Counted from the first letter of the stretch, positions 3,659-21,429 are shown. The stretch: 64,000 nucleotides of DNA from an uncultured Gammaproteobacteria bacterium (GCA_947260025.1 CAMYON010000029.1:10243-74242); one strand, 5' to 3'. The notes: a model not told the origin generated them from the sequence alone. Numbers and translations: made by a program.

Positions 3659-4411
3659 ATGCTGGCCGACATCACGACGGGCACCCGGGCACTGGCACGC
3701 GCGTTCAGCCTGCTCAACCTGCCCGGGGTGCGTATTTACGTGGTCATCCCGTTGCTGATCAATTTTCTGCTGTTCGGCTTCCTGATCTGGTATGGGCACA
3801 GCCTGTTTACGCCGTTCGTCGACTGGCTGATGTCCTTCGTGCCAGGCTTCCTGGATTTTCTCGAAACCCTGATCTGGCTGTTTTTCGGCGTGCTGGCCGC
3901 AATGACGGTGTTTTTTGCCTTCACCCCGGTGGCCAATATCGTCGCCGCACCTTTCAACGCCTTGATGTCGGAAAAAATCGAGACGCAGCTTACCGGGCGC
4001 GCGGTCTCGTCCGACATCAGCTTCATGAAGATGGCGATCGACGCGATCGGTTCGCAGTTACGCAAGCTGGGGTATATTGCGCTGTGGGCACTGGGACTGT
4101 TCCTGGTCACGCTGATTCCCGGCATCAACCTGATTGCGCCGGTGCTGTGGGTGGTTTTTGGCTCCTGGCTGCTGTCGCTCGAGTACTTCGACTACCCGAT
4201 GGGAAATCACGACATCGTCTTCTCCGAGCAAAAACGGCGCCTGTCGCAGCGACGCGGCATCTCCCTCGGCTTCGGCGGCGGCGTCATGATCATGACCAGC
4301 ATCCCGATCGTGAATTTCTTCGCCATGCCGGTCGCCGTTGCCGGCGCCACCCTGCTCTGGGTCGAACAGTTCCAGCCTAACCAAGCCTCAAACACCGCAT
4401 CACACCAGTAG
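3659..4411 (+). CDS. cysZ: Sulfate transporter CysZ / EI24-domain membrane protein
   Basis: Hydrophobic; ANIVAAPFNALMSEK and LEYFDYPMGNH motifs; next to queF and smc. Confidence 0.85.
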   Translation: MLADITTGTRALARAFSLLNLPGVRIYVVIPLLINFLLFGFLIWYGHSLFTPFVDWLMSFVPGFLDFLETLIWLFFGVLAAMTVFFAFTPVANIVAAPFNALMSEKIETQLTGRAVSSDISFMKMAIDAIGSQLRKLGYIALWALGLFLVTLIPGINLIAPVLWVVFGSWLLSLEYFDYPMGNHDIVFSEQKRRLSQRRGISLGFGGGVMIMTSIPIVNFFAMPVAVAGATLLWVEQFQPNQASNTASHQ

Positions 4412-4448
4412 TGGTTCTACTCTAATACTTTCTGCTATCCCTTCGATC

Positions 4449-4643
4449 GGCAACCGCCGGAACCCCGCGCGACTGACAGGGTGGCCTGCGGCTTCCCGAA
4501 AAAGGGTGAATTTTTTAGGGCAAGGCGATACGCGACGTCCCTGTCGCGAATCGCCACAGGCCACGTCCATGTGGCCTGACCCTAAAAAATTCACCCTTTT
4601 TCGGCACCCTGTCTTTAGGTCGCGCGGGGTTGCGGCGGTTGCC
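4449..4643 (-). repeat. Structured palindromic element copy A (195 bp; long form with two AYGGAY-like hairpins on the - strand)
   Basis: Nested inverted repeats: 25-bp outer arms 4449-4473/4619-4643 (1 mismatch), 9-bp stem, perfect 25-bp inner arms 4496-4520/4580-4604, two terminal hairpins. Homologous to the reverse complement of 4866-5060. Confidence 0.9.
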
Positions 4644-4686
4644 TTTCAGAATCCAAAGTTTGTAAAGTCGTAGCTCCAGTATCTAA

Positions 4687-4773
4687 ACCCCAGGACGCCT
4701 GGGGTCAGACCCCGGTTTTCGCCAACGCTTTCGTACCCGGCCACCCATAGTTCCAAAACCGGGCTCTGACCCC
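4687..4773. repeat. REP-like palindrome of GGGGTCAGACCCC type
   Basis: GGGGTCAGACCCCGGTTTT (4701-4719) and AAAACCGGGCTCTGACCCC (4755-4773) form a 19-bp inverted repeat with 1 mismatch; it overlaps the hairpin ACCCCAGG-ACG-CCTGGGGT (4687-4705). Confidence 0.7.
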
Positions 4774-4865
4774 TTCGAAGCGACCTGGCACATTAATCAA
4801 TCGAAGCACATTGTTTCAGTCTGAATACAGCGACAGATTGACCTTCTGATAATTGGGCAACCAGA

Positions 4866-5060
4866 GGCAGCTGGCACGGTTCACCGCAACCTAAAGACCG
4901 GGTGCCGAAAAGGCTCGTTTTTTAAAGGGTCAGGTGGCATGGACGCCACCTGTGGCGATCCGCGACATGGATGTCGCGTATCGCCTTGCCCTTTAAAAAA
5001 CGAGCCTTTTCGGGAAGCCGCAGGCCACCCGGTCAGTCGCGGTGAACTGTGCCAGCTGTC
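4866..5060 (+). repeat. Structured palindromic element copy B (195 bp; TwoAYGGAY-like hairpins on the + strand)
   Basis: Outer arms 4866-4890/5036-5060, perfect inner 25-bp arms 4905-4929/4989-5013, loops ATGGAC (4939-4944) and ATGGAT (4967-4972). Inverted partner of copy A. Confidence 0.9.
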
Positions 5061-5084
5061 GGATTGATTGAAGACCGACTCAGG

Positions 5085-5912
5085 CTAGATGTTTATTGGA
5101 GGGAGATTTAACGGTTGGCCGCGCTGCTGGCGTTCGGCTTCTGGCAGGATATCCGTGCCGGGCCAGAGGCCGTCGCCCAGCGCCTGGCCGTACTCGGACA
5201 TGCCGACGGCGATGGTCGATTGTCGGCTGGCCTGGTAATCGTAGTCGAGGCGGTGCCAGCTGACCTGCAGGGCCGAGTCGACCGCTTCGATCAGCATGCA
5301 CCAGCCATGGCTGCCGCCGTCGTTCGCAGGCATGCCGATCACACCGGCGTTGAGCCAGTGGTAATCCTCGATTTGCTGCCCGAACGGGATGCCGCAATGG
5401 CCGCCGATCACGACATCGACCCCGGACTGGCGAATCTGCGCCAGCTTGGGCGCCGCATCCTGCGAAGCGAAGACGAATTCATTGATGCTCGTCGGGCTGC
5501 CATGAACCGCCTCGAAACGTTTGCCATGCATCTCGAACTCGATACTGCGCGGCAGGGACTGCATCCAGCGTCGCTGCGCCGGCGTCACTAAGCGGCTGGC
5601 ATATTGGTACCAGGTAATTGCCAGGGCGGAACAGCTGCTGCCCTCTTCGAAGCCGCAACCGCAATCCGGTTCGCTGAAGGCCAGCGACTCTTCGCAGTTG
5701 CCCATGACCACCTGAATGCCCCAGTCACGGATCAGATCGAGTGTTTGCACCGGTTCGGCGCAGTAGGCTACCAGGTCCCCGGTGCAGATAACCCGTTCTG
5801 CCGGAATGTCGAGTTCCAGCGCACGCCGCTGCATCGCTTCGGTCGCCGCCAGATTACTGTAGGGCCCACCGAATACGAGCAGCCTGTCAAAGATGGTGCC
5901 TGTATCAGTCAT
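5085..5912 (-). CDS. Calcineurin-like metallophosphoesterase family protein
   Basis: GGPYSNL, CTGDLVAY, MGNCE, VHGSP, GGHCG and NAGVIG motifs; likely ATG at 5912. Confidence 0.8.
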   Translation of the reverse strand: MTDTGTIFDRLLVFGGPYSNLAATEAMQRRALELDIPAERVICTGDLVAYCAEPVQTLDLIRDWGIQVVMGNCEESLAFSEPDCGCGFEEGSSCSALAITWYQYASRLVTPAQRRWMQSLPRSIEFEMHGKRFEAVHGSPTSINEFVFASQDAAPKLAQIRQSGVDVVIGGHCGIPFGQQIEDYHWLNAGVIGMPANDGGSHGWCMLIEAVDSALQVSWHRLDYDYQASRQSTIAVGMSEYGQALGDGLWPGTDILPEAERQQRGQPLNLPPINI

Positions 5913-6049
5913 CGTTGTCCTGAAGTATGAATAGAATTGCCGCAATCCTCGCGGGCGCGGTCAAAATACGGTCACAAACCACACTAGGACCTTGACCGGA
6001 ATTTAAAAGTTCGCATACTGCAGGCGTATTCCCTGATACGGATCCGAAT

Positions 6050-20952: not shown

Positions 20953-21060
20953 GGCAACCGCAGGCCACCCTCTCGACTGACCAGTTTGTCTGCGGCTTCC
21001 CAAGAAAGGGTGTTTTCAGGACAACCGGTCTTTATGTCGAGAGGGGGGCCTGCGGTTGCC
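20953..21060 (-). repeat. Structured palindromic element copy C (108 bp, short form)
   Basis: 25-bp arms 20953-20977/21036-21060 (GGCAACCG...CGGTTGCC); on the + strand it shares CGACTGAC, CTGCGGCTTCCC and GTCTTTA.GTCG with copy A. Confidence 0.9.
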
Positions 21061-21321: not shown

Positions 21322-21429
21322 GGCAACCGGAGGCGTCACTTTCGACATAAAGGCCGGTTGTCCTGAACACATACACTCGTGGGAAGCCACAGGCAAACCG
21401 GCCAGTCGAAAGTGACGTCTTCGGTTGCC
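21322..21429 (+). repeat. Structured palindromic element copy D (108 bp), inverted partner of C
   Basis: 25-bp arms 21322-21346/21405-21429; the reverse complement aligns without gaps to copy C. Confidence 0.9.

Follow-up and report, generated by a model that had tools for sequence, protein, structure and literature searches.

The window analysed here is a stretch of 64,000 nucleotides from the genome of an uncultured Gammaproteobacteria bacterium (GCA_947260025.1, contig CAMYON010000029.1, 10243-74242). Between two convergent genes, cysZ and a metallophosphoesterase gene, the window carries a pair of long palindromic elements, hereafter designated A and B, whose positions are collected in Table 1 together with those of two shorter relatives located further downstream. 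An earlier note, made from the sequence alone, had described an inverted pair of 195-bp elements lying 222 bp apart between convergent flanks and aligning without gaps, and the coordinates, the alignment and the Pfam matches all agree with this description. A long inverted repeat joins 4468-4624 with 4885-5041 (157 nt, 82% complementary). The spacer between the 5' ends of the two elements, whose sequence is not conserved between species, includes a small hairpin of its own, formed by 4701-4719 and 4755-4773, after which comes CCCCTTCGAAG.

Table 1. Features of the cysZ locus and of the second doublet of the window (positions counted from the first nucleotide of the window)
Feature	Coordinates	Strand	Description
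cysZ, left flank	3659..4411	+	CysZ/EI24, PF07264, 1.4e-45; stop 37 nt before A
3' single-stranded tail of A	4433..4448	-	GGGA motif
Element pair A + B	4449-5060		inverted, 222 bp apart; between convergent cysZ and metallophosphoesterase gene
Element A, extended TwoAYGGAY, 195 nt	4449..4643	-	fold -150.8 kcal/mol, z -18.0; R1 score in text
RF01731 match within A	4489..4611	-	55.3 bits vs gathering 43; loops AUGGAC 4565-4570, AGGGAC 4537-4542 (plus-strand coordinates)
Spacer between 5' ends of A and B	4644..4865	.	222 bp
Element B, extended TwoAYGGAY, 195 nt	4866..5060	+	fold -141.9 kcal/mol, z -17.4; R1 score in text
RF01731 match within B	4898..5020	+	61.6 bits vs gathering 43; loops AUGGAC 4939-4944, AUGGAU 4967-4972
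3' tail of B	5061..5076	+	GGA at its start
Metallophosphoesterase gene, right flank	5085..5945	-	calcineurin-like phosphoesterase PF12850, 5e-10; convergent with cysZ
108-nt core-less relative, left of second doublet	20953..21060	-	R1 73.3 bits
108-nt core-less relative, right of second doublet	21322..21429	+	R1 76.8 bits

Element A has an outer stem of 25 bp, an asymmetric CUAAA bulge, a short stem of 8-9 bp and an inner stem of 25-26 bp, to which are added two hairpins with GGA loops and a GCC-GCA-GGC mini-hairpin; B can be aligned with it across the element length without a gap. As inverted repeats, the outer stems extend over 25 nt at 96% in A and 23 nt at 91% in B, and the inner stems over 31 nt at 94% and 30 nt at 93%, respectively. 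Folding reproduced the multi-stem architecture proposed in the earlier note, with a correction for the outer stem, which is flawed by one G.G mismatch in A and by one G.U and one A.C in B. None of 200 shuffled sequences folded as stably as A or B.

In the 64-kb window, the only matches above the gathering threshold of Rfam 15 are those of A and B, both to TwoAYGGAY (RF01731), with a third match to this model found elsewhere in the genome. The matches in A and B span model positions 1-168 and cover 123 nt of each 195-nt copy, leaving the 25-bp outer stem, the bulge, the 8-9-bp stem and the mini-hairpin outside the model. Shared with TwoAYGGAY are the two neighbouring hairpins with AYGGAY-type loops that rise from a common basal stem, as well as a taxon range that takes in gamma-proteobacteria. 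The loops of B fit the motif, and copy A departs from it in one loop, AGGGAC, which has R in place of Y. TwoAYGGAY is listed in the 2010 survey as a probable RNA, with Clostridiales, gamma-proteobacteria and the human gut given as its sources (PMC2864571, Weinberg et al. 2010). A later article (PMC4333381) notes that one stem of the motif contains tandem G.A pairs; by eye, hairpin 2 of most relatives reads CGAGAC/GUCGAG, where tandem G.A pairs are possible, and the four copies of the present genome read CGCGAC/GUCGCG, which pairs by Watson-Crick rules. A and B are almost certainly members of TwoAYGGAY. The strands of the Rfam matches place the RNA strand of A on minus, so that A and B face apart and form a divergent doublet. 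The earlier note had read A on the opposite strand; the Rfam strand, the GGA loops, the excess of G.U over A.C and the 3' tail all designate minus as the functional one.

For the portion of A and B that exceeds the Rfam model, a counterpart has also been described. According to the available part of a recent preprint (Li et al., 10.64898/2026.09.22.753630), TwoAYGGAY RNAs of Pseudomonadota are extended by a longer basal stem, additional hairpins and a 3' pseudoknot, their copy number is highly variable, variants with fewer hairpins are mentioned, and the doublets in Pseudomonas, 68.4% of them divergent, are separated by a median of 249 bp (IQR 163-312). The elements studied here share with the form seen in that part of the text the elongated basal stem with an internal hairpin, the covariation at variable positions, the variable copy number and the divergent doublets, their gaps of 222 and 261 bp falling among published gaps of ca. 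160-310 bp. In the helices beyond the Rfam range, 23/25 pairs of the 25-bp helix and 5/8 pairs of the 8-bp one are compensated. Differences were also noted with what is accessible of the preprint: in place of the three added hairpins, only the 3-bp GCC-GCA-GGC mini-hairpin is found here, and the large 3' repeats are absent. Pairing of the NUAAA bulge with the tail, as a counterpart of the 3' pseudoknot, showed no consistent covariation, and arrays of the 5-6-mer GMTBT(T) were not enriched within 200 nt upstream (1.02 per copy over 46 copies vs 1.57 +/- 1.27 in 5000 random genome windows). The architecture of A and B is thus the Rfam core plus the published extension, in the commonest arrangement of pairs. 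The suggestion that it belongs to no described family has to be abandoned, with RF01731 covering 123 of the 195 nt and both the extension and the divergent pairing found in the accessible part of the preprint; the pair is a fresh instance of an already catalogued element, and no new type of system is revealed by it. Through this locus, TwoAYGGAY, an orphan among RNA motifs since 2010, gains a lineage of low copy number and slow evolution in which individual doublets can be tracked from one species to the next, giving clean covariation and a strand call.

Additional copies were gathered with nhmmer and a covariance model, designated R1, built from 24 full copies of the genus; strict regular expressions for the junctions missed most of them. 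R1 recognised A with 214 bits on the minus strand vs 92.9 on the plus strand, and B with 208.6 bits on the plus strand vs 84.1 on the minus strand. In the genome of the window, the search returned eleven elements on five contigs. Four are 195 nt long, namely A, B and a divergent pair on contig C16 (261-bp gap), four are 108-109 nt long and keep the outer frame without the two GGA hairpins, and three are 136 nt long with another interior; ten of the eleven sit in five divergent doublets. The earlier note had spoken of copies A to D: A and B are full-length, and the other two proved to be the 108-nt core-less relatives of Table 1.

Across the genus, 31 of 61 genomes have an R1 match at E <= 1e-6, with 0-27 matches per genome. 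Among the matches listed, 94 long copies occur in 23 genomes, 66 of them exactly 195 nt long and 13 others 210 nt long owing to one 15-nt insertion. All seven long-long doublets among these listed matches run minus-then-plus, with gaps of 159-437 bp. Of the long copies that have no long partner, 16 were examined, and 11 of them have, at 12-110 nt upstream, another hairpin element on the other strand; by eye, these partners belong to other TwoAYGGAY-like subfamilies, and the gap is just 12-13 nt in four of the 11 loci (L126, L127, L130 and L131). When R1 was applied outside the genus to 150 other gammaproteobacterial families, each represented by one genome, 12 of them gave matches, either full-length or to the core. 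The exact junction motif was recovered in 39 stretches of a species-representative collection, 37 of them records of uncultured Gammaproteobacteria MAGs. These data bear directly on the view that A and B are a local inverted duplication that folds by chance and represents no family. The adjacency of the two copies is all that speaks for it, and the eleven elements on five contigs, the 94 long copies listed for 23 genomes of the genus, the hits in 12/150 other families and the closer relationship of A to the copies of contig C16 (86%) than to B (82%) speak against it. With family-wide copies in the genome, the genus and other families, this reading is refuted and retains practically no probability.

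The 24 full copies served to test the predicted fold. Eight helices comprise 81 predicted pairs, of which 57 are changed on both sides, confirming the remark that stem centres vary and yet stay paired; throughout the genus, compensatory change thus maintains the structure. Paired cells amount to 98.3% of 1941, vs 84.3 +/- 0.4 in shuffled alignments (0/500 as high), and drop to 35-48% after a shift of the partners by 1-3 columns. Together with the 66 listed long copies of 94 that keep a length of 195 nt, this covariation substantiates the earlier proposal that conservation concerns shape and helix length and not sequence.

Several features distinguish the two strands. On the outward strand, which is that of the Rfam matches, 55 G.U vs 9 A.C were counted among 1941 cells; when one conserved U.G pair is left out, the figures are 32 G.U vs 9 A.C (wobble in 32/1917 cells), with the caveat for the reading as RNA that a G.T wobble would likewise favour one strand in single-stranded DNA and that scarce wobble pairs could also reflect an arm-to-arm correction at the DNA level. 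Both hairpin loops have invariant C-A, G-G-A and G positions (CA-N-GGA-N-G) in 24/24 copies, and the elements share a conserved GGGAAG junction. Beyond the 3' end, GGA occurs within at most 16 nt in 33 of 45 copies and its complement TCC in 1/45; in 2000 shuffles, tail GGA was found in 16.3 copies on average (sd 3.1, maximum 27). Partner elements from other subfamilies also present their GGA loops on the outward strand, as judged by eye. A third and a fourth GGA site are thereby shown outside the Rfam model. The features that mark the strand lie partly outside the palindrome and are therefore no by-product of double-stranded symmetry, and the maintenance of pairing, two GGA loops, the GGGAAG junction, the GGA tail and exact helix lengths indicates a structure shaped by purifying selection. 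A and B very likely act through a single-stranded structure of the outward strand that is under selection, and this molecule is probably RNA rather than single-stranded DNA. Between the two options left by the earlier note, a structured RNA family and a folded DNA recognition site, covariation, loops and strand signals support the first.

The fate of orthologous sites was followed in relatives. Synteny at the cysZ-phosphoesterase junction is kept in 27 of 30 loci, with an intergenic region of 0-1233 nt, and the comparison for empty sites suggested in the earlier note identified 7/27 loci that are essentially empty. Full long-long doublets occupy the site in two species whose CysZ is 85% and 78% identical, with spacers and variable stem segments unlike those of the window. 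The closest relative (CysZ 94%) has a 189-nt remnant in which the left part of A is joined to the right part of B, indicating that the centre of the large palindrome was lost by deletion. The second doublet site, whose flanking protein has 96-100% identity in five relatives, occurs in several forms: the pair is short/short in the present genome, short/long in its closest relative and long/long in another, a centre-deleted fusion is found in a fourth genome, tandem 136-nt units in a fifth, and only a small palindromic hairpin in a sixth. From the five forms seen at this site, core-less elements can be regarded as having derived from full copies or replaced them. Individual sites are remodelled by deletion and replacement, and the family itself persists.

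This turnover raises the question of mobility. The elements might be non-autonomous mobile or recombinogenic DNA, MITE- or REPIN-like, whose folded strand is the substrate of an enzyme encoded elsewhere, with the doublet as the moving unit and GGA loops that are incidental or secondary. The presence of 0-27 matches per genome in 31/61 genomes of the genus, a cysZ site that is occupied, empty or collapsed depending on species, a second doublet site whose form varies among close relatives and the preference for convergent genes (5/6 units here, 21/33 by a crude caller) are all compatible with such a scenario, and a mobile-element-like expansion of TwoAYGGAY is suggested in the available part of the preprint (10.64898/2026.09.22.753630). 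However, doublets are retained at given sites even between species with flanking proteins of just 78-85% identity, the sites read showed no target-site duplication, and the invariant loops and the GGA tail beyond the palindrome are unaccounted for by a DNA substrate. To our knowledge, the hairpin substrates of HUH/Y1 enzymes are far smaller than a 195-nt multi-helix fold, which also counts against mobile DNA. The more specific proposal of the earlier note, the ends of an element moved in trans by an HUH/Y1 (RAYT-like) transposase, finds no support: its statement that the window encodes no Y1 transposase is correct, the three Y1_Tnp genes of the genome are on other contigs without an element within ca. 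1.5 kb (no R1 match better than E 0.2), and Y1_Tnp genes occur in 28/31 element-bearing vs 29/30 element-free genomes. Mobile DNA is therefore regarded as an unlikely primary explanation.

The elements can also be compared with known repeats and recombination sites. REP/BIME/REPIN, ERIC and Correia repeats are likewise extragenic palindromes, often in inverted pairs at convergent-gene sites, with size classes arising from internal insertions or deletions. In contrast to them, the present elements are far longer and multi-branched (195 nt vs ca. 20-40 nt for a REP unit), and have variable stems that covary and conserved loops that are strand-specific; no RAYT gene was found flanking the elements, nor any association with Y1_Tnp. 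As for MITEs, the ends GGCAACCG and CGGTTGCC are conserved, with no duplication seen at the sites read and no transposase identified. Integron attC sites are imperfect palindromes recognised by structure and not by sequence, in which asymmetric bulged bases mark the strand, as in the elements studied here. Unlike attC, the latter lie between housekeeping genes, out of any cassette array or integrase context, and they differ in length and branching. A role of the variable stems as guides was also considered and ruled against, as the 12-mers of the variable stems of all 11 elements had external matches in the genome at chance level (0.43 expected per 12-mer).

The location of the elements was also examined. 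Five of the six units of the genome lie 27-90 nt past the stops of convergent genes. A longest-ORF caller applied to 33 callable units classified 21 as convergent, 11 as tandem and one as divergent, a rough figure given that the caller made at least one known error (L006) and that one locus was counted twice (L020 and L135). The same tail-to-tail bias is documented for hairpin repeats of P. fluorescens and explained as the 'least worst' place, in the accessible part of that study (PMC2718517). A position just behind convergent stops would also suit a cis-acting hairpin, REP/BIME- and ERIC-like, that blocks read-through or exonucleases at 3' ends. Either strand does fold stably, the reverse strand reaching 84-93 bits with R1, and an empty orthologous site of one relative holds a small palindromic hairpin. 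Yet the conserved GGA loops, G.U pairs and 3' tail belong to a strand that is antisense to the adjacent gene, and an exact length of 195 nt, invariant loops and a second inverted copy would be superfluous for a simple barrier. Nor was the U-tract of a terminator present: between 4380 and 5120, the lone hit of a terminator scan falls within the stem of A and no U-tract follows either element on either strand. A simple 3'-end barrier is thus judged quite improbable.

Turning to a possible function of the RNA, CsrA and RsmE recognise the consensus CANGGANG within a hairpin loop, a site that we take to be equalled by the TwoAYGGAY loop consensus found here. A match of TwoAYGGAY loops with the CsrA-binding motif was made in 2015, according to the consulted part of that article (PMC4333381). 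The genome has one csrA gene (86 bits), on contig C87. On the basis of their sequence, the GGA motifs of the elements may tentatively be considered as CsrA-binding sites.

Csr/Rsm sponges such as CsrB, RsmY and RsmZ, which are transcribed from their own promoter and end with a terminator, share with the elements several GGA motifs in hairpin loops and single-stranded stretches. In contrast to these sponges, the elements have about four GGA per copy, are repeated and palindromic, and no promoter or intrinsic terminator was found for them. The scan for sigma-70-like promoters gave 0 sites in 4380-5120, spacer included, and the flanks of 45 copies showed neither a position-specific promoter signal upstream nor a U-tract downstream. 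The only signals in these 45 flanks were a GA preceding GGCAACCG and, two bases past the 3' end, a weak T. A T-rich block near -37 in the upstream flanks was traced to the partner repeat family. Gaps of 12-13 nt between partners leave no room for a promoter. A search for sequencing runs that contain the locus listed none of RNA, and the best DNA run shared 0.14 of the sampled words. The Rfam models of CsrB, RsmY and RsmZ had no match at the locus, and those of CsrB and RsmZ none in the genome. An RsmY-like candidate with a proper terminator was detected elsewhere in the genome at a sub-threshold score (27.6 bits vs gathering 57), so a sponge role of the elements is not required to fill a gap.

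Taken together, a reasonably likely explanation, and the best one combining these data, is that A and B are a TwoAYGGAY divergent doublet, that is, a structured RNA with predicted CsrA-type sites which is also a palindromic intergenic repeat. Each element would act as an RNA of the outward strand; its ca. 60 bp of fixed-length, sequence-free helix carry the two GGA-loop hairpins. The GGA motifs may bind the CsrA (RsmA-type) of the genome, making the element a small multivalent decoy or a CsrA-recruiting module, and the long perfect helices could serve as a rigid scaffold, either nuclease-resistant or processable by RNase III. As DNA, the elements behave as palindromic intergenic repeats. Most of them lie between convergent genes, they are retained at orthologous sites in different species, and deletions inside or between the inverted arms remove or shorten them. 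The natural core-less and collapsed derivatives, together with the negative result for Y1/RAYT genes, sharpen the ideas of a CsrA decoy and of a palindromic mobile DNA.

The existence of core-less copies also invites another arrangement of the same facts. In the 108- and 136-nt copies, the frame is retained and the GGA hairpins are missing, suggesting that the frame has a life of its own, a point that speaks against the explanation above. It is conceivable, if improbable, that the helical frame (GGCAACCG ... CGGTTGCC), and not the GGA core, is the evolving unit, that its pairing is kept by correction at the DNA level, and that RNA from the doublets serves as a CsrA decoy. Payloads would then vary or vanish, as in the 195-, 210-, 225-, 136- and 108-nt forms, near-perfect pairing would be maintained by arm-to-arm correction or hairpin-templated copying, and divergent doublets at the junctions of convergent genes would be formed, collapsed and exchanged by the same DNA process. 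Such a correction between arms would account for the scarcity of wobble pairs despite the 57 of 81 pairs that differ between copies.

The window also contains a second divergent doublet, flanked by convergent genes and composed of two 108-nt elements. These share with the 195-nt elements the frame GGCAACCG...CGGTTGCC, including the bulge and the mini-hairpin, and are devoid of the two GGA hairpins. Orthologues of this second site in related species are occupied by 195-nt copies. At both sites, doublets reduced to a single long hairpin were identified in relatives, namely at the cysZ site of G063 (locus L039) and at the second site of G077 (locus L139). The sequence lost comprises everything between equivalent points of both inverted copies, which shows directly that the palindromes at these loci are unstable.

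Forms of 210 and 225 nt result from two exact 15-nt insertions (L023, L024, L025 and L007; columns 111-125 and 181-195 of the element alignment A2), one within hairpin 2 and the other adjoining the mini-hairpin, which occur singly as well as jointly and have a 7-nt complementary stretch in common. The insertion in hairpin 2 could pair with the second GGA loop and mask it. Frame variants of 136 nt lie in a repeated block in the genome of the window (G000:C42:6200-6800), as a doublet with a gap of only 48 bp and a third, partial unit, and are arranged as tandem direct repeats in the relative G064 (site in L141). These arrangements are reminiscent of the large repeats that have been reported to flank the elements in Pseudomonas.

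A small palindromic repeat distinct from the TwoAYGGAY elements, of the type GGGGTCAGA...TCTGACCCC with CCCCTTCGAAG after it, was repeatedly found in spacers, beside elements and at an empty orthologous site (L142). The motif CCTTCGA likewise precedes element A and is present in empty cysZ sites of relatives. The repeat may represent the REP-like element of the lineage, or a preferred landing sequence.

Features identified in the window and elsewhere in its genome (G000)
Feature	Position	Strand	Remark
108-nt element	window 20953-21060	-	left member, second divergent doublet
108-nt element	window 21322-21429	+	right member, second divergent doublet
Small palindromic repeat	window 4689-4781		in A-B spacer
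Small palindromic repeat	G000:C104:2770-2850		
Sub-threshold RsmY match	G000:C43:9304-9409 (L136)	-	27.6 bits vs gathering score 57

At the RsmY-like locus, a CACAUGGACGUG hairpin is accompanied by additional GGA motifs, and an intrinsic terminator is clearly recognisable; the locus is a candidate for a conventional Rsm-type sponge RNA.

In P. fluorescens SBW25, the R200 repeat family is listed with 320 bp and 47 copies (PMC2718517, Table 3), a number close to the 48 TwoAYGGAY matches given for this strain in a 2026 preprint (10.64898/2026.09.22.753630). Compared by copy number, R200 and the SBW25 TwoAYGGAY may be the same element.
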